A stretch of DNA of 29,415 nucleotides from Acidimicrobiaceae bacterium. GTDB taxonomy: Bacteria; Actinomycetota; Acidimicrobiia; Acidimicrobiales; Poriferisodalaceae. The translations under genes were made by a program, and so were the position numbers. This document shows positions 1,289 to 29,415 of this stretch, in pieces (position 1 is the first letter of the stretch; each line of letters begins with the position of its first letter). The DNA is taken from positions 1-29,415 of the forward strand of contig DMOB01000259.1 in assembly GCA_003452475.1 (NCBI GenBank), in the 5' to 3' direction. The notes under the pieces are model-generated. The model was not told the DNA's origin. It did not search any database and was given only the letters and a program-made list of their open reading frames with translations.

Positions 1289-2176
1289 TCAGCTAAGACT
1301 GTTAGCTGCTTCAACGAACGGCTCGATGCGGGTTAAGTTGCTATCGAGATGTTTCAGTCCTTGTCTGAGGAAAGGGATTAAAAGCTGAGTCACGCCAGCT
1401 TCTTTATACGCTTCAACTAACGCCGGGTCTATGGTGTCATCAATAGCACCAATATGGATTTCTATCTCTGATATATCTCGGTTTTCTTCTGCCATGAACT
1501 TCGCAAGCCTATCGATGAGGCTTTTGCTTTCTGAAGGAGAAAGGTTGATTCCGTACCAGCCTGACCCGTACCGCGCGGTGCGTTTGAGAGCAGCATCGGA
1601 ATGTCCGCCCACTGTTATCGGCACCATTGGCTTTTGTACCGGTTTTGGATACACCCTGCATGGAGCCAATTGGTACATGTCACCATAGAAAGAACTGACT
1701 TCATCAGTCCAACATGAAGTAATTACTTCGAGATATTCATCGCAACGTTTACCTCGGTTAGGCCATGGCGCACCGAGCGCCTCAAACTCTTCCCAACTCC
1801 ATCCGACACCTACCCCGAAATCAAGGCGACCACCGCTTAAAAAATCGAGAGTTCCGTACTCTTTGGCTACATAAACTGGATTGTTTTGAGGGAGTATACA
1901 AATACCGGTGCCAAGCCTAAGAGTCTTTGTGCAGGCAGCGAGAAATCCTATGCTGCTGACCATGTCCATCAATCCGCTTCCCTCAGGGAATCGGAAAACA
2001 CCATCACTGCTACCCGGGTATTTTGAGTCATACTGGTCAAAAGTAACTACATGTTCCCCTAACCAAAATGAGTTAACCCCCATGGATTCGGAGCCTTGCG
2101 CAAACTCACGTAAAAATTCGGGAGTTGCTGCCGGTGAACGAAGCGGCGTGAACAATCCTATTTTCATAGAACTCAA
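1289..2176 (-). CDS. LLM-class probable F420-dependent oxidoreductase (Rv2161c/TIGR03619-like); start may be ATG at 2167
   Basis: WLGEHVV, LRLGTGICILPQNNP, SGGRLDFGVGVGWSWEEF, PKPVQKP-PI-VGGHS-AA-R-A-YG-GW. The TTG at 2176 overlaps the P450 stop codon. Confidence 0.88.
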   Translation of the reverse strand: MSSMKIGLFTPLRSPAATPEFLREFAQGSESMGVNSFWLGEHVVTFDQYDSKYPGSSDGVFRFPEGSGLMDMVSSIGFLAACTKTLRLGTGICILPQNNPVYVAKEYGTLDFLSGGRLDFGVGVGWSWEEFEALGAPWPNRGKRCDEYLEVITSCWTDEVSSFYGDMYQLAPCRVYPKPVQKPMVPITVGGHSDAALKRTARYGSGWYGINLSPSESKSLIDRLAKFMAEENRDISEIEIHIGAIDDTIDPALVEAYKEAGVTQLLIPFLRQGLKHLDSNLTRIEPFVEAANSLS

Positions 2177-3426
2177 GTGCTTTCGGCTGTTGCGCTGTTT
2201 CTTTTGACCGCATCGTCGTGACTAGTTTCCCAAGTTAGAGGGATAGAACGTGGTCCTCTTACTGGGCCGCCTGCCCATGTGACCTTATTAGAATCAGTCA
2301 ATTCAAATTCTGGAACTCTCTTAAGCCATTCTTCTAAAGCGACTTTGATCTCCATGCGTGCGAGGTTAGATCCGAGACAACGGTGAATACCTAATCCGAA
2401 AGCTGAATGCCTATTGACTTCTCGATTGATCTGAAATTCTTCGGCATCAGCTAAAAATTCCGGATCACGGTTAGCTGAAGCGAAAGGAAGCATGACTCGC
2501 TGCCCTGGACACAGTGTTGTTCCTGAAATTTCAACCTCGTTTGTAACTACTCTGGCCATAGAAACGGGAGAATAGAAACGCAAAAACTCTTCGACTGCGG
2601 CATCCATGGCTTCGGGGTCATTAACTAACCGGCTCCTGTCCTCACTGTTTTGGCTTAAGTGAAGAATAGACGAACCGATCGTTCCCCAGGTCGTGTCTAT
2701 CCCGGCGAGAAGTAATAAAAAAAGCCCTCCGCTAATCTGCCTATCATCGAGAGGTTTCCCGTTCATGTCTGCTTCAAGTAGATAAGTTAAAATATCGTCA
2801 CGGGGATCATTTCTTCGTGATTCAATAAAAGTTCCAAAATATTCAAAAACTTCAGAAGTTGCTTTTGCAGCTAATTTGACGTCTGTTGGCCCGGCTTCAA
2901 GAAGCTCGTAAACCCACCTTCTGAACATGTCTCCATCTTTTTCGGGTATCCCAATCATTCTTGCGATTACTTTTACAGGAATATGTTTGGCATAACTTTC
3001 GCTCGCATCGCAAGACCCATTTTCAGCGAACTCATCCAGTAACTCGTTACAAATATCGCGTGTTATCGGTAGCCATTTTTCAATGGCCTTTGCGGAGAAT
3101 GCTGGAAGCAACACGCGCCTATGATCCTGATGATCGGGTGGATCTGAAGTTATTGGAGGTGAGCTAAACGAACCAAGGTCTTCAACTCGAACGTCACTAA
3201 TAATTACTGATTTGGATGAAAAATTTTCAGTATCGTGGGCTATGGCAGAAATATCTTCATGCTTAGTAGGTAGATACACTCCGTTGAAACGGTCGGTGTG
3301 TGCGATTGGACAGCCACTCTCGCGGATATCTTTCCAAATCGGGTACGGATCGGTCAGATACTCTTCGTGATAGGGATCGAAGTCATTTGCCCAGTCAGTC
3401 ACGTCTGGACGATTTGGTGTGTTCAT
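2173..3426 (-). CDS. Cytochrome P450 (soluble bacterial type)
   Basis: I-helix AGIDTT, K-helix EEFLR (ExxR), heme motif FGLGIHRCLG, and DPPDH-HRR. SD-like GGGAG lies upstream of the ATG. Confidence 0.97.
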   Translation of the reverse strand: MNTPNRPDVTDWANDFDPYHEEYLTDPYPIWKDIRESGCPIAHTDRFNGVYLPTKHEDISAIAHDTENFSSKSVIISDVRVEDLGSFSSPPITSDPPDHQDHRRVLLPAFSAKAIEKWLPITRDICNELLDEFAENGSCDASESYAKHIPVKVIARMIGIPEKDGDMFRRWVYELLEAGPTDVKLAAKATSEVFEYFGTFIESRRNDPRDDILTYLLEADMNGKPLDDRQISGGLFLLLLAGIDTTWGTIGSSILHLSQNSEDRSRLVNDPEAMDAAVEEFLRFYSPVSMARVVTNEVEISGTTLCPGQRVMLPFASANRDPEFLADAEEFQINREVNRHSAFGLGIHRCLGSNLARMEIKVALEEWLKRVPEFELTDSNKVTWAGGPVRGPRSIPLTWETSHDDAVKRNSATAEST

Positions 3427-3455: not shown

Positions 3456-3620
3456 TCCCATTGGCAACATCTCATTAAAATAGTAGTCGATCGATGCACA
3501 AAGTGCCCCAACTATTGAAGAAGTCGGCTAAATGGTTTGCCAGATGATCATGGGGTGATTAATAGTTGTAACGGGGGCGTCGCAATTTGTTTAAGGCGCG
3601 ATGACGAGGGGAATAAGAAC

Positions 3621-4901
3621 TTGGGTTCTGCAGATTTATCAAATGGTCCATTAACCGGACTTAAAGCTCTCGATATGACAGTTGCTGTCCAAGGGCCGCA
3701 CGTTGGGGCATTTCTTAGCGATATGGGCGCAGAAGTGATAAAAGTTGAACCTCCTGGCGGGGAGCTAAACCGTTATGCGCGCGGTCCAGGTTTTGACTTT
3801 GACATGGATGTAATGGGCAGCCAACAGGTAGCTATGAATCGAGGTAAAAAGTCAATAGCTTTAGATGCTCACGGCGAGTTAGGTCAGCGGGTTCTTCATG
3901 AGCTAATAAAAGAGTCTGACATATTTGTAACAAATTATCGCTCAGAAGCACTGGAAAGAATGAGCTTAGATTACGAACATTTACGAAAGTTAAATGATCG
4001 TCTGATTTATGGCAGAGTGTCAGGATTCGGTCCGAAGGGACATGATGCCAACAAAGCGATGTTGGATGGAGCAGCTCAAGCTCGTGGAGGTTTGGCCGCA
4101 ATCTCGGGTTCTGCTGATGGGCCCCCTATGCCGCCCGGAGCAGCGATAGCTGATCATTCAGGTGCCATGCAACTGACTTTAGGTATTATGACTGCATTGT
4201 TCGCTCGTGAACGCACTGGTAGGGGACAAGAAGTAAATACGTCAGCATTGGGCACAATGATGTGGTTGCAATCTTGGGAGCTAACCCATACAGCAATGAC
4301 CGGCATCACTTTGGGACGTGATGGGCAGCATAACCCAAGTATTGCTAGCCCGTATGGTGTGTACCAGGCCTCCGATGGTGGGTCTTTCTTGTTGGCTGTG
4401 GCTATGTCAGACGAGTCATGGGATGAGTTTCTCGTGTTTGGTGGAAAGCCCGAGTTGGTCTTAGACAGCAGGTGGAACACAGGAGCTAAGCGAATAGGAA
4501 TTCTCGGGGATGGCGATGGTGTTGTTGAAATCCGAGCTGCGTTGAGCGAAGCATTTAAGACACGCACCACCGAAGAATGGGATATTTTCTTTAAACAACA
4601 ACCAGAAATCATCTATGAGCGAGTCCAGGGCTACAAGGAGCTATTAGGAGATCCTCAAGCTGAAGCTAATGGCTATATTGCCGAGATAGATGTACCGAAT
4701 TATGGGAAAACCAAAGTGGTCACCAACGTGGTGCAATTGAGCGACACACCAGGATTGGGAGCGACACTTCCCCCACCGGAACTAGGTGAACACACATCTG
4801 AGATCATGGTTTCTTTGGGTTTTTCACCAGAAGAGGTCGCGGAAGTACTTGCTCCAATAGAAGCTGCTGCAGCTGAAATAATTGGTTTAGTGATTTCTTG
4901 A
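3621..4901 (+). CDS. Family III (CaiB/BaiF) CoA-transferase; start revised from 3537 to TTG 3621
   Basis: GPLTGLKALD, GAEVIKVEPP-G, NRGKKSIALD, D-FVTNYR, catalytic Asp region AIADHSGA, PELGEHT. SD GAGGGG lies 9 nt before the in-frame TTG at 3621. Confidence 0.93.
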   Translation: MGSADLSNGPLTGLKALDMTVAVQGPHVGAFLSDMGAEVIKVEPPGGELNRYARGPGFDFDMDVMGSQQVAMNRGKKSIALDAHGELGQRVLHELIKESDIFVTNYRSEALERMSLDYEHLRKLNDRLIYGRVSGFGPKGHDANKAMLDGAAQARGGLAAISGSADGPPMPPGAAIADHSGAMQLTLGIMTALFARERTGRGQEVNTSALGTMMWLQSWELTHTAMTGITLGRDGQHNPSIASPYGVYQASDGGSFLLAVAMSDESWDEFLVFGGKPELVLDSRWNTGAKRIGILGDGDGVVEIRAALSEAFKTRTTEEWDIFFKQQPEIIYERVQGYKELLGDPQAEANGYIAEIDVPNYGKTKVVTNVVQLSDTPGLGATLPPPELGEHTSEIMVSLGFSPEEVAEVLAPIEAAAAEIIGLVIS

Positions 4902-18067: not shown

Positions 18068-18076
18068 TGCTAAAAT
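18068..18076 (+). promoter_or_regulatory. Extended -10 promoter (TGC-TAAAAT) of a leaderless transcript
   Basis: TGnTAAAAT exactly 6 nt before ATG 18083, with no SD sequence. Confidence 0.55.
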
Positions 18077-18082
18077 AAAAAT

Positions 18083-18712
18083 ATGAAATTAGAAGCCCCT
18101 TCTATCGTCGAATTGCACATTGGGGATGAGCCGCAAGTTTGGAAAAATTTAGGGTTCCGAGTCGAAAATAAACGATGTCGAGTAGGAACTATAGATTTGG
18201 TATTTGACCAAGGTTCTAAAGGTTCAGGAATCCATTCATGGGTTCTACAAAATGCTAAATCTCCAAATTTTGGTTCAATTAAAACTATGTCACAAGATTT
18301 TTTATCGACAGAAGTGGCGTCAGACCATCCGAATGGGTGCTTTGGTATTGACCACGTTGTGATGCGAGTACCTGAGTTTAGTAGAGGGCGAATGGCTCTG
18401 GAAAAGATAGGAGCGCTCGTTGGTGAACCCGAAGCCATTTCGAAATCTGGACCGACGATATTAAGATCTGCTGTGAATATGGGCGAAGTGGTCCTTGAAC
18501 TGATTGGGCCAGAAGAGCTTGACCCTATTGCTAGTTGGGCGCTTTGGGGTCTTGTGATGTCAGTTCGGGAGGTTGACGAATGTGCCAAGCTTCTAGGGCC
18601 AGCTGTAGGAAAAGTTAAACCTGCTGTTCAAAAAAATAAATGCATAACGACAGTTCGGAAGGAAGCGGGTGCCTCTGCAGCGATCGCATTCTTAGGGCCA
18701 CCTGCAAAATAA
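18083..18712 (+). CDS. VOC/glyoxalase-like fold protein
   Basis: IDHVVMRVP, VVLELIGP, LWGLVMSV, AVGKVKPAVQ. Appears to have repeated beta-alpha-beta-beta-beta modules. Confidence 0.7.
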   Translation: MKLEAPSIVELHIGDEPQVWKNLGFRVENKRCRVGTIDLVFDQGSKGSGIHSWVLQNAKSPNFGSIKTMSQDFLSTEVASDHPNGCFGIDHVVMRVPEFSRGRMALEKIGALVGEPEAISKSGPTILRSAVNMGEVVLELIGPEELDPIASWALWGLVMSVREVDECAKLLGPAVGKVKPAVQKNKCITTVRKEAGASAAIAFLGPPAK

Positions 18713-25460: not shown

Positions 25461-26858
25461 TTGGCCGTTGCGTGTGGCGTTGGGTTTCTGAGCGGTCTTG
25501 ATACATCCGTTAACATAGCGTTTCCCGCTCTTAGCGCCGCCTTTGAATTAGACGTTTCGGATATTCAATGGGTTGTCATAAGTTTCGTTCTCAGCTATTC
25601 AATTTTGCTATTACCAATAGGCCGGTTTGCTGATCAAATCGGTCATGGTCGTGTTGTGCTAGCCGGGATCATTGTTGAAATGTTTGCTTTAGCAGCGTGT
25701 GGAATGGCGACAGTCTTCTGGTTTTTTGTTCTGGCAAGAATAGCCCAAGGAATCGGCATCGCATTTATGTTGAGCTCTGCGCCTGCGCTCGTAACCCTTT
25801 CAGTGTCTGAAGAAAATCAACCGCGCGCTCTTGCTCTTTTCGCAATGATGATCGCTATGGGCGTAGCTGCGGGAGCCCCGATAGGAGGCGTACTCCTCCA
25901 AACATGGGATTGGCAAAGTGTTTACCTATACAGAGTTCCCTACACGGGCCTGCTCATGCTCCTATCTCTCTGCTGTGCCATGTATCGTCGCCCAACGATA
26001 ACGAAACCTGAAGTGCTAGACATCAAAGGCGCTTTATCATTGGGGAGCGGACTTGGGTTAGTTCTCTTTGTGGCGAGCCGAGGGTTTACTTGGGGCTGGT
26101 TTGCGTTTCCAACTTTATCAATGGCAGGTATAGGCATCGGGCTGCTAGCTGTGTTCGTGATTGTTGAACGTAAGTCAGAAAACCCGTTAATAGACTTTAA
26201 CCTTTTTGCTATTCCTGACTTTGTTACTGCCAATTGTTTGAACGCATTAGCTAACGCAGCAATGTTTACAGTGTGGTTTTTGGGCCCATATTTTTTAGTA
26301 ACTGTTCGCGGCCATGGAACAACTGCCGGAGGCTTAATCCTTGCTGTGTCTCCTATTGCTACAGCCATTGCTGCGAAGTACTCGGCACGGTTAGTGCGAA
26401 GAATTAACATCAATTTGCTAAGTCGCTGGGGTCTTCTAATTGAAGGAATTGGGTTAGTAGCCATGAGCAGGGCAACTGCACTAACACCTCTACCAGTAGT
26501 GGTAATTTTTCTTGTACTTGTTGGCGCAGGACTTGGTTTGTTTCAAGTTCCGAACATGAGCTTTGTGATGGCTTCTATCGATCGAACAAAACAAGGATTA
26601 GCCGGTGGTATTACGCAAATGACCCGAACGGTTGGGCTAGTGGCCGGGCTGGCCGTCTGGAACACTCTTTACATCATTCTGCGTGATCGCAAAGCTGCAG
26701 AGTTGAGTATCAGCGAGTTAGAAGATCCGAGAATTTTTGTACCTGCATATAGCGCCGTCCTCGGTTTAGCTGGATTGTTGTGTCTACTCGGAACGCTTGC
26801 AACTCGTCAGAAACGAGCCACTATCAATGACCTTCCCGATGTTCCATTGTGTAAATAA
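25461..26858 (+). CDS. MFS transporter, 14-TM DHA2 (EmrB/QacA-like); true start uncertain
   Basis: LD-SVNIAFP (motif D1), QWVVISF, GRFADQIG, ARIAQGIG, GGVLL-W-W, ERKSENPLID, Q--RTVG. Confidence 0.9.
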   Translation: MAVACGVGFLSGLDTSVNIAFPALSAAFELDVSDIQWVVISFVLSYSILLLPIGRFADQIGHGRVVLAGIIVEMFALAACGMATVFWFFVLARIAQGIGIAFMLSSAPALVTLSVSEENQPRALALFAMMIAMGVAAGAPIGGVLLQTWDWQSVYLYRVPYTGLLMLLSLCCAMYRRPTITKPEVLDIKGALSLGSGLGLVLFVASRGFTWGWFAFPTLSMAGIGIGLLAVFVIVERKSENPLIDFNLFAIPDFVTANCLNALANAAMFTVWFLGPYFLVTVRGHGTTAGGLILAVSPIATAIAAKYSARLVRRININLLSRWGLLIEGIGLVAMSRATALTPLPVVVIFLVLVGAGLGLFQVPNMSFVMASIDRTKQGLAGGITQMTRTVGLVAGLAVWNTLYIILRDRKAAELSISELEDPRIFVPAYSAVLGLAGLLCLLGTLATRQKRATINDLPDVPLCK

Positions 26859-27753
26859 TAGTTCCTAAAGAAATAAGTACGATACCCATGCCCGCCATTT
26901 GCCAAACGTTCAGGCTCTCACCTAAAAAAAGGGCTGCCCAGGCAGTCGATAAAATGGGTACAGCGAGAAACATCAGCGAAACCAGAACAAGCTTGGTATT
27001 TGAGTGAGCAAAATTAACGAGTGTGTGTCCAGCCCCGCCGACTAGAGCCAAGAGCGCTAGAAATTTCCAATCTGAGCCTGAAACCCCCATGTCCTGTCCG
27101 CTTACAAGAGCTATGGGCAACGCAACGGCCGCAGCGACCAAGGTAAGAGTCGTTTGAAGTTCTATAGCGTCCAAGTGCTTACGAGCATTTTTTGTGGCAA
27201 AAAGATAGACGGTCCAAGCAAGAATTGCGCCAACTGAGAGAAGGTCGCCTCTAAAGTCCCACTCAGGTCTCGTAGACGAACCATAAACAACTGTAACAAC
27301 ACCTGCCATGGCCAAAAGAGCGAGCCATCGATCAGAATGGTAAACACGTTCCCCCAGAATCGGCCCGACTAGGACTAACGACATAGCCGGCTGAATCGCT
27401 CCAATAATAGTCGCATTAGCAATAGTTGTTAATTTCACAGCAGTAAAAAACATTGCGATGTTTATTGCGAAAAGAAGCCCAGGGAACCATGACCATCGAA
27501 GAGCAGCAAGAGTAATTGTTTTGCCGCGAATAGCCATAACAAGACTCAGCGCTAGAGCTAACCAAAAAAACCTGTGAAATGATAGCGCCAATCCATCAAG
27601 ACTAAGATGCTTAGCAACTGGCCCAGTGATACTCAATAGACAGACCGCGAAAGTAGCTACAGACCAACCGGGTAAAGCAGTTTTAGAACTGACAGATTCG
27701 GCTTGTGTTACTTCAAAAATATGTGCATTATCCACCGGGTGCGAATCTTCCAC
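26824..27753 (-). CDS. DMT superfamily (EamA-like) transporter
   Basis: About 10 TM segments in two EamA repeats: TTIANATII, LGERV, GDLLS, FLGESL-VWQ-AGM. Confidence 0.9.
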   Translation of the reverse strand: MEDSHPVDNAHIFEVTQAESVSSKTALPGWSVATFAVCLLSITGPVAKHLSLDGLALSFHRFFWLALALSLVMAIRGKTITLAALRWSWFPGLLFAINIAMFFTAVKLTTIANATIIGAIQPAMSLVLVGPILGERVYHSDRWLALLAMAGVVTVVYGSSTRPEWDFRGDLLSVGAILAWTVYLFATKNARKHLDAIELQTTLTLVAAAVALPIALVSGQDMGVSGSDWKFLALLALVGGAGHTLVNFAHSNTKLVLVSLMFLAVPILSTAWAALFLGESLNVWQMAGMGIVLISLGTIIYTMEHREGH

Positions 27754-27759
27754 GCGGAG

Positions 27760-28815
27760 CTAAGTTGCCATATGGCGACGCGAGACGAGGTCATTTACGC
27801 CGATAGCTTCTCGGATATCGGCCGATGGCTCGTCTGTCCCTGCGTCAAGCGGAGTTCCGGTCCCATCTGCTATTCGAGTCATCATATGAAACATTGCACT
27901 AACTCCGACTGCATCAACGAAAACATCAGCGCCGGCTGCATTGACTAATTCTTCGCGAACAGCAGTCAATTCATTCAAATTTTTAGACCACAAGGCCTCA
28001 GATAGTTTTGACAACAACTCTCCGTGAAGAACACCCCCATTACCGTCCGTGGAACTCGAAATAGCTTCGAAAGAAATATCTATGTTCTGGCTGACCCCAC
28101 TCAAACTGAGCAGAAAAGAATGGCTCGTAGTTCAATAAAAACACTCATTCAGCTTTGAAGTTCGGGCCGCAACTAATTCTATTTGAAGTCGAGTCAGCGA
28201 GTTGTACCCAGATGTCAAATCGCCCAACAGAGCAGCAGTTGGCACATATTGAACACTCGAAAGAATTTCTCGCGATTCATTTTCAAAAGGAACAGAGCTT
28301 AGCGCCTTCAAAACATTTGGACCTTTGGTAGCAGCGGTAGGTACCCAATGAGTCGTAACAGATACTTCTAACTCACTCATGACGGCAGTCTTTGTAGCTA
28401 TCGGGTCGGGCAAGTCGACTCTTTTAACGCCAAGGCCATCGGCAAATCGATCTACACAGTTAGCTTGAGCGACTAATCCAACCAACTCTACGTACGCAAC
28501 TGGATCAATATTTCGAGAGATAATCGATTCGTACCATTCCTTTGTGAGCGTTCCGGGGTGATTAGTTAACCGCCAAATAACATCTATCGCAGCATCAGGG
28601 AGAGGATGGTTATTGGCTATGAATCCTTCAATGGAGCTTGGCGCTTCCCAAGGAGCCAACTCGTCTGCGTCTATCGCACGGCGCACCTCAGCTATAACTG
28701 AAAGTCTCTGTTTGCTACTCCAAGAGTGACTGGGAGTAGCCCATCTTGTGGCTAAGTCTCCATGAGCTGCATCAAGCTCTGGCCGTATGGGAAGTTCCGT
28801 CGTGTAGGTAGACAT
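27760..28815 (-). CDS. AhpD/CMD-like alkylhydroperoxidase-related selenoprotein (CxxU motif). One 351-aa CDS (357 aa if started at 28833) with Sec at TGA 28132-28134; merges track ORFs 28132-28833 and 27760-28104
   Basis: The upstream ORF ends ...ELVAARTSKLNECFY-TGA. The same frame continues TTSHSFLLS directly into the downstream ORF with no further stop, giving C-F-Y-U-T-T-S-H, which matches the AhpD CxxCxxxH motif. A SECIS-like hairpin follows. The two halves share CMD-type endings (DRFADGLG and TRIADGTG). Confidence 0.85.
28097..28113 (-). promoter_or_regulatory. Putative bacterial SECIS element (CUGCUCA-GUU-UGAGUGG)
   Basis: 7-bp stem including two G-U wobble pairs. The apical loop begins with G and starts 25 nt after the UGA, within the spacing typical of bacterial SECIS elements. 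Confidence 0.6.
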
Positions 28816-28969
28816 TGTTCTATATTTGCACATTTTCTCTGAGTATCCTGAGAAGCTCTTTTTAAGGAACTATTCAGAAGTTAAAGGAAAAATTCAACTT
28901 CAGGTGACGTGACCCCCAAATGAGGCGTACGATTTGTCCAATAAGGCACGGCAATTATAAGGAGCGATC

Positions 28970-29415
28970 ATGCCGACTCCCCAGAAAGCCATCTTTAACG
29001 GGATGGGTCAAAATCAATGGTACGTTCACCTCAGTCGAACAGAAGGCGCTGACCTTGGAGTAATTAAGACAGCGCTGTCTGGCTTGGTTACCGATTGCAA
29101 CGCGGAGGGTATTAACCTTACTCTTGGCTTTGGTCCAGGTCTGTTACCAGAATTGACTGATGATGTTCCCGAAGACTTTCAGGCTTATACAACAGTTGAA
29201 TCCACCGATGGTTCAGGTCGCCAGGCTAAAGGCACTCAAGAAGAGCTGCTTTTGTGGCTGAATCATGATGACAAGGACAAGGTTTGGAAAGCTCAATACG
29301 ACGCTCGCAAAGCCCTAGAAGGTCACATGGCCGTTGCGCGTGAAACGCCAACGTTTATTTACGGCGAGTCCCTCGACATTGCCGGCTTCAAAGATGGAGC
29401 CGGTAATCCAGCCGA
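28970..29415 (+). CDS. DyP-type (dye-decolorizing) heme peroxidase, 5' part, truncated by the window end; not in the ORF track
   Basis: AAGGAG SD, then an open frame of 148 codons: MPTPQKAIF...LTLGFGP...TQEELLLWL...LDIAGFKDGAGNP, containing the GXXDG(xxNP) DyP motif at 29384-29398. No signal peptide. Confidence 0.9.
   Translation, partial: MPTPQKAIFNGMGQNQWYVHLSRTEGADLGVIKTALSGLVTDCNAEGINLTLGFGPGLLPELTDDVPEDFQAYTTVESTDGSGRQAKGTQEELLLWLNHDDKDKVWKAQYDARKALEGHMAVARETPTFIYGESLDIAGFKDGAGNPA

Follow-up and report, generated by a model that had tools for sequence, protein, structure and literature searches.

A predicted selenoprotein gene of the NF041238 family, split at its UGA codon by conventional gene calling and adjacent to a DyP-type peroxidase gene in marine Acidimicrobiia

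Near the end of a contig from an uncultured marine Acidimicrobiales genome, a long reading frame is interrupted by a single TGA codon, which raises the question of whether the locus holds two small hypothetical genes or one gene in which the UGA is decoded as selenocysteine (Sec, U). The DNA analysed, here called the window, comprises positions 1 to 29,415 of contig DMOB01000259.1 from the metagenome-assembled genome (MAG) GCA_003452475.1. Positions 27760-28833 on its minus strand very probably form a single gene, whose product would be a selenoprotein of ~351 aa belonging to the NCBIfam family NF041238. That the product is a selenoprotein appears close to certain, with the incorporation of selenium itself being predicted. 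The features on which the argument turns are the following.

27760..28833, minus strand: complete predicted selenoprotein coding sequence, stop codon TAG 27762-27760 included (reading frame, NF041238 score, single confident fold)
28813..28815, minus strand: probable true start codon (M7), proposed from homologue starts and 227-aa public fragments
28132..28134, minus strand: UGA, predicted Sec codon U234 (TGA in 50 of 50 copies; TGC in genome G077)
28120..28179, minus strand: active-site segment E219-x9-N229-E-C231-F-Y-U234-T-T-S-H238 (alignment to D. radiodurans AhpD, 6k40)
28096..28114, minus strand: putative selenocysteine insertion sequence (SECIS)-type hairpin (comparative pairing and covariation)

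The frame opens at ATG 28833 and runs for 233 codons, ending in L-N-E-C-F-Y at TGA 28134-28132, beyond which a further 123 codons stay open in the same frame until TAG 27762-27760. With the TGA read, the product from ATG 28833 is 357 aa long (P0001). Conventional calling of open reading frames (ORFs) instead yields a 233-aa ORF and a 114-aa ORF starting at TTG 28104, the nine codons T-T-S-H-S-F-L-L-S joining the TGA to this TTG. A previous sequence-only reading of the window had described exactly this arrangement, from the 233-aa ORF stopping after C-F-Y to the in-frame link, and had estimated a selenoprotein of roughly 351 aa. That length is what the second in-frame ATG (28815, M7) gives, and the family model introduced below is matched over its full length. 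We consider ATG 28815 the likelier start from comparison of sequences, because homologues open with M-[SA]-T-Y-x-T-E-L-P and most public N-terminal fragments are 227 aa long; a strong Shine-Dalgarno sequence precedes neither ATG 28833 nor ATG 28815.

The read-through protein scored 306.7 bits against NF041238 (cutoff 175), residues 16-349 covering positions 1-355 of the 357 in the model, and in a six-frame scan of the whole genome the window gene was recovered at 297.8 bits with one TGA. NF041238 (AhpD_rel_CFYUT) is a curated equivalog for an ‘alkylhydroperoxidase-related (seleno)protein’, named for its CFYUT motif. It corresponds to ‘hypothetical protein 1’ of the Sargasso Sea selenoproteome, described from four sequences that share a conserved CXXU motif and were predicted to have a bacterial SECIS element (Zhang, Fomenko & Gladyshev 2005; PMC1088965), and it is also listed in a 2026 review (PMC13188914). 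The family is already known and curated, and the find is correct, not new. The sequence-only reading had anticipated as much, yet took the gene for one of the AhpD-like selenoproteins of marine surveys, which it is not: the abundant ‘AhpD-like 1/2’ proteins (COG2128 / PF02627, CxxU; PMC2398784) share the superfamily, the CxxU motif and the marine setting, but are single-domain proteins of ~180-200 aa, whereas the window gene belongs to the separate, two-lobed NF041238 family. Within that family the window copy differs in nothing defining, sharing the C-F-Y-U-T motif, the length of ~357 residues, the CxxU redox motif and the SECIS-type hairpin. It belongs to a paralogue group marked by A-A-R-T-S-K-L-N-E-C-F-Y-U, the one that is paired with a DyP-type peroxidase gene.

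We scanned 61 related genomes and extracted 50 copies for inspection (43-45 distinct sequences). An NF041238 match was present in every one of the 36 genomes belonging to the same taxonomic family, related genomes often carried 2-4 paralogues each, and nearly all of the ~70 matches over the cutoff had exactly one in-frame TGA. In the extracted copies, which come from the class Acidimicrobiia, the TGA fell in the same column of the motif [NR]-x-C-F-Y-U-x-x-x-H in 50 cases out of 50, and sister MAGs carrying the gene at 99% and 90% identity retained it. Residues E219, C231, F232, Y233, U234 and H238 were invariant among 25 aligned members, and the active-site residues did not vary even between paralogue groups sharing only 29-57% identity with the window protein. 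Judged from these alignments, a TGA column of such constancy is not a product of chance. The position is also occupied by cysteine in a full-length member: genome G077, from another family of the class, has TGC there, in N-R-C-F-Y-C-T-L-G-H, within an uninterrupted ORF (L077, G077:C8), while its relative G218 has TGA. Both the retention of TGA in relatives and its alignment to Cys in a full-length homologue, which the sequence-only reading had named as support, were thus found. A more distant homologue free of internal stops (L052; G050:C117, ~1505-2377, minus strand) has serine at the Sec position (N-G-C-A-Y-S-L-F-A-H). Homologues at ~55% identity occur in Ca. Microthrix, in the sponge-associated Ca. 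Poriferisodalis and in Ferrithrix. Among 300 genomes sampled evenly across the phylum, each at least 85% complete, the family appeared in three genomes of a single family, all within class Acidimicrobiia, and it was not detected in the sampled genomes outside that class.

Downstream of the UGA, the window transcript can form the hairpin UCUGCUC-AGUUU-GAGUGGG (28114-28096), located at +21..+39 from the U of UGA, with 7 bp and G29 and U30 in the loop. The same hairpin, a 7-bp stem with a 5-nt loop N-G-U-N-N, occupies +21..+39 in every Sec copy, and the consensus hairpin is absent downstream of the Cys codon in the G077 copy (L077). Across a 45-sequence alignment (A2), 96.8% of stem cells were paired, compared with 29-49% when the 3' partner was slid by 1-3 columns. 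Three stem pairs showed two-sided, compensatory changes (G-C/A-U/G-U; C-G to U-A; G-C/C-G/U-A), and covariation reached 0.264 against 0.178, with none of 500 shuffles attaining the observed score. In addition, the serine codon in the 3' arm of the hairpin is AGY in all sequences, as selection at the RNA level predicts. On this comparative evidence the hairpin is a bacterial SECIS-type element, and its binding by SelB is putative.

The MAG (G000; 1.99 Mb in 342 contigs, 72% complete, with only 16 tRNAs assembled) encodes the proteins of Sec synthesis and insertion: selD (354 bits), selA (395 bits) and selB (271 bits) all exceeded curated cutoffs, and selA and selB adjoin each other on contig C282. 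The two genomes of the same genus, each more complete than the MAG, both carry a tRNA-Sec gene (65.5 bits), and two other genera of the family have one as well, the overall range being 64-70 bits. Sec use is patchy in Actinobacteria, as the sequence-only reading fairly remarked; its suggestion that the lineage might be undescribed in this respect did not hold, Sec machinery having been reported in a 2026 preprint for Actinomarina, a member of another Acidimicrobiia order.

We built an AlphaFold2 model with the 25-sequence family alignment. The model is all-helical and confident (mean predicted local distance difference test, pLDDT, 90.9; predicted TM-score, pTM, 0.92) and unbroken across residue 234. 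Residues ~159-341 superimpose on the AhpD-family structures 6k40, 2oyo, 2prr, 3c1l and 6e8l (S. pneumoniae AhpD), with Z scores of 11-13 and root-mean-square deviations of 2.6-3.0 Å over ~164 residues. AhpD-family chains as a whole gave Z 10-13 and 2.5-3.0 Å over 141-167 residues, well apart from unrelated proteins at Z below 4. Since this AhpD-like domain crosses residue 234, it requires both ORFs. With the AhpD or ‘peroxidase-related’ group (6k40, 2pfx, 3c1l, 2oyo, 2prr; TIGR01926, PF02627) the C-terminal lobe shares the same helical fold at Z 12-13 and ~2.7 Å over ~164 residues. A family profile retrieved D. radiodurans AhpD (6k40) at E = 3.2e-13, aligning E219, N229, C231, U234 and H238 with the Glu, Asn, CxxC and His of that enzyme, and it placed U234 on the second Cys of CxxC in 6k40, 2pfx, 3c1l and 2oyo, which bears out the earlier proposal that the UGA occupies the second redox Cys position. 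The spacing, E-x9-N-x-C-x-x-U-x3-H, is that of D. radiodurans AhpD, so the E-x7-N distance given in the sequence-only reading has to be corrected. Each residue of the signature E-x9-N-x-C-x-x-C-x3-H of AhpD and CMD proteins has its counterpart here, the second Cys being replaced by Sec. Unlike these proteins, the window protein is about twice as long, carries an extra N-terminal lobe that lacks CxxC, falls below Pfam and TIGR domain cutoffs when scored singly and has no adjacent ahpC.

When the whole chain (residues 3-357) was compared with known structures, the best match was human Sestrin2, at Z 17.6 over 244-248 residues with 8-9% identity. Such Z values call for caution with helical proteins, but this one exceeds the stated background of the tool. 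Because the whole chain matches two-lobed Sestrin2 best, the N-terminal half of the model can be read as a second, presumably non-catalytic, AhpD-like lobe; the predicted architecture is a double AhpD, resembling that of Sestrins. With Sestrin2 (5dj4, 5t0n) the protein shares two AhpD-like helical lobes in one chain; the human protein is, in contrast, a eukaryotic leucine sensor and GATOR2 binder without Sec, and the likeness is one of architecture only.

Taken by itself, a single in-frame stop in a MAG fragmented into 342 contigs is what an assembly error would typically look like, and the TGA could in principle be a nonsense mutation or a sequencing error that marks a pseudogene. We give this explanation practically no credence, as the same TGA recurs in the sister MAGs and in all extracted copies, spanning many genera, independent assemblies and closed chromosomes, and the frame beyond it is conserved and folds within the same domain. 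Only slightly less remote is the view that public pipelines take, namely that there are two true genes, one for a 233-aa protein that ends at the TGA and one for a 114-aa protein with TTG 28104 as its start, which these pipelines indeed call as ‘hypothetical proteins’ of 227 or 233 aa and 114 aa. A break at this point would cut the AhpD-like domain 159-341 and deprive it of the catalytic H238, whereas the homologue with Cys consists of a single ORF, both parts are covered by the NF041238 model and the predicted fold continues across the UGA, so that homologues do not exist as separate genes; moreover, TTG 28104 lies within the SECIS loop and, as had been noted before, lacks a ribosome-binding site. 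The UGA might also be read through as something other than Sec, be it as Trp or Gly by reassignment, as Cys, or through near-cognate suppression. In some systems the Sec machinery can place Cys at UGA under selenium limitation, and the failure to recover selC from the MAG would fit this explanation as well. Reassignment is countered by the finding that, of 754 long open frames in the genome, 279 (37%) terminate in TGA, which is thus an ordinary stop, and non-Sec decoding in general by the presence of selA, selB and a Sec-type selD, by selC in the genus, by the conserved SelB-type hairpin and by the redox Cys that homologues have at this position. We therefore regard non-Sec read-through as very improbable.

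A number of observations nevertheless weigh against decoding of the UGA as Sec in an AhpD-related protein. Of the machinery that the sequence-only reading named, selA, selB and selD were found, as described, and searches of the MAG with Rfam RF01852 and ARAGORN gave no tRNA-Sec, their best matches being tRNA-Ser; at 72% completeness and with only 16 tRNAs assembled, this result is uninformative and not a negative. The hairpin sits in a conserved coding segment, L-L-x-x-S-G, and part of its conservation is accordingly at the protein level. Taken alone, the window hairpin is weak, with three G·U pairs and about -7 kcal/mol, and the 81 nt after the UGA, folded singly, showed no significant structure relative to shuffles (z = +1.27). 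Finally, generic models stay below their cutoffs with the single sequence: PF02627 (CMD) gave 17 bits (cutoff 23), TIGR00778 19.9 (27.8) and TIGR01926 32.5 (81.8). Homology to AhpD is supported all the same by the profile match to 6k40.

The features neighbouring the probable selenoprotein gene are as follows.

28970..29413, plus strand: 5' part of a DyP-type haem peroxidase gene that the window end truncates after 148 codons (assigned from full-length orthologue scores)
28834..28969, no strand: divergent intergenic region of 136 nt between the selenoprotein and DyP genes, with presumed promoters and a possible regulatory role
26824..27753, minus strand: EamA/DMT-family transporter gene, starting 6 nt past the selenoprotein stop codon

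A full-length orthologue of the truncated DyP gene (L054:1937-2866:-) scored 145 bits with TIGR01413 and 117 bits with PF20628. Comparison of DyP coordinates with selenoprotein coordinates revealed that, of the 20 genomes with a DyP orthologue at more than 80% identity, 19 have the two genes side by side in divergent orientation, with at least eight genera represented. The gap between them is usually ~110-260 nt and reaches ~930 nt in one genome; in the exception, G017, DyP and selenoprotein genes lie 12 kb apart. Identity across the paired genomes is 78-88% for DyP and ~55% for the selenoprotein, and only the A-A-R-T-S-K-L-N-E-C-F-Y-U paralogue group is paired with DyP. We found no report of this pairing in the searchable literature, where queries on Acidimicrobiia, Poriferisodalis or DyP with NF041238 turned up only the Actinomarina preprint, and to this extent the earlier suggestion of an undescribed gene context stands.

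The conserved divergent pairing suggests a role in the handling of peroxides or other oxidants. In M. tuberculosis AhpD, the second Cys of CxxC acts as the nucleophile, and we take the position of U234 to be that of this nucleophilic Cys. According to the mechanism that we propose, SelB·GTP·Sec-tRNA(Sec) would bind the hairpin and decode UGA 28134 as Sec, and the U234 selenolate would then attack an oxidised substrate, which may be a peroxide or a sulfenic acid or disulfide of a partner protein. Resolution by C231 would yield a selenenylsulfide while H238 and E219 relay protons, and a cellular thiol system would subsequently re-reduce the enzyme. A specific peroxide-linked redox role, predicted from signature and neighbourhood, strikes us as plausible, with a chance approaching even.

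The same selenoprotein may, however, have another activity of the CMD/AhpD fold, such as reductive dehalogenation of the kind carried out by Bmp8 or a reaction of the decarboxylase type, or it may play a regulatory part as Sestrins do. The debrominase Bmp8 matches the model at Z 12.5, on a par with the AhpDs, and the best full-length match is Sestrin2; ahpC is not adjacent in the window (a genome-wide search for it was not made), only some paralogue groups stand beside DyP, and the function of every family member is still putative. The DyP link, moreover, consists of gene neighbourhood only, and enzyme activity of NF041238 members is predicted from sequence and model. On the other hand, the full E / N / CxxC / H redox signature of AhpD is invariant, Sec nearly always serves redox catalysis, and the conserved neighbour is a peroxidase. 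We consider another chemistry unlikely, though a serious contender. As a more speculative extension of the peroxide-linked role, NF041238 and the divergent DyP could make up a two-gene module dedicated to oxidant handling in marine and sponge-associated Acidimicrobiia, with the selenoprotein as a bacterial and catalytically active counterpart of the two-lobed Sestrin architecture, whose Sec/Cys centre might, for instance, protect DyP or its oxidised products or return them to the reduced state; we put this forward tentatively, as a possibility that may well turn out otherwise.

On its other side the selenoprotein gene is followed by the EamA/DMT gene on the same strand, with which it is possibly co-transcribed, and then by a convergent MFS transporter gene. 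Both are conserved only within the genus, and for this reason we dropped them as candidate functional partners. The remaining genes of the window have ordinary acyl-CoA, monooxygenase and hydrolase functions. Two long ORFs, at 18070-18588 (minus strand) and 18083-18712 (plus strand), overlap almost fully, the plus-strand one having no Pfam match. Another TGA-bridged frame, at 3516 on the plus strand, reads C-T-K-C-P-N-Y-U ahead of a 454-aa ORF (3537-4901) and was rejected as spurious, because the standard ORF already contains the whole CoA-transferase III domain, from residue 39 on, and the 76 aa ahead of it match no family. Six further TGA-bridged frames in the window have short flanks and lie opposite or within annotated genes.

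Elsewhere in the genome, SelD (G000:C129:2218-3159, L001) is itself a selenoprotein, with Sec at its active site in the motif S-H-G-A-G-U-A-C-K-L-G-P. A second NF041238 paralogue (G000:C294:6637-7623; L027:1501-2487:+) scored 364 bits with one TGA. Members of its paralogue group carry additional cysteines towards the N terminus, in G-x-C-G-T-W-W and in a C-x-x-C of the first lobe; the window copy lacks these cysteines, which could constitute a metal site or a second redox site. The genome also encodes short, single-domain AhpD-like proteins, located as follows.

G000:C58:642-1196 (L041): form with an in-frame TGA, N-E-C-H-Y-U-I-S-H-H, of the classical ‘AhpD-like’ selenoprotein type
G000:C272:5801-6229 (L040): Cys-type relative, N-D-C-M-Y-C-V-I-A-H

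Exact look-ups in NCBI, ENA, IMG, Logan and Tara retrieved the N-terminal fragment, at 233 aa and at 227 aa, and the C-terminal fragment of 114 aa as separate entries, mostly named ‘hypothetical protein’, for instance in Acidimicrobiales and Ca. Poriferisodalaceae MAG records. The expectation of the sequence-only reading that pipelines would split the gene into two hypothetical proteins is thus true of submitter-annotated MAGs, and NCBI's own pipeline holds the model needed to call it. For the 114-aa fragment and for near-identical members of its cluster, the records list tens of contigs each (44 to 93), so that the organism appears to be widespread in marine metagenomes and the mis-annotation systematic.

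As a discovery the gene is minor, given that the family, its CxxU motif and its SECIS element were reported in 2005 and a curated NCBI model exists. What we add is modest: the DyP pairing, the Sestrin-like two-lobed architecture and the systematic mis-annotation of the selenoproteome of this lineage. With near-identical copies in GenBank, IMG and Tara MAG data deposited as two unrelated ‘hypothetical proteins’, standard gene callers count too few selenoproteins in the abundant marine Acidimicrobiia. The 2-4 paralogues, together with the Sec-containing SelD and the short AhpD-like selenoproteins, point to heavy use of selenium in the redox defence of this lineage, and the combination of DyP pairing and a Sestrin-like two-lobed fold provides a first concrete, testable hypothesis on function for a family that has been uncharacterised for twenty years.

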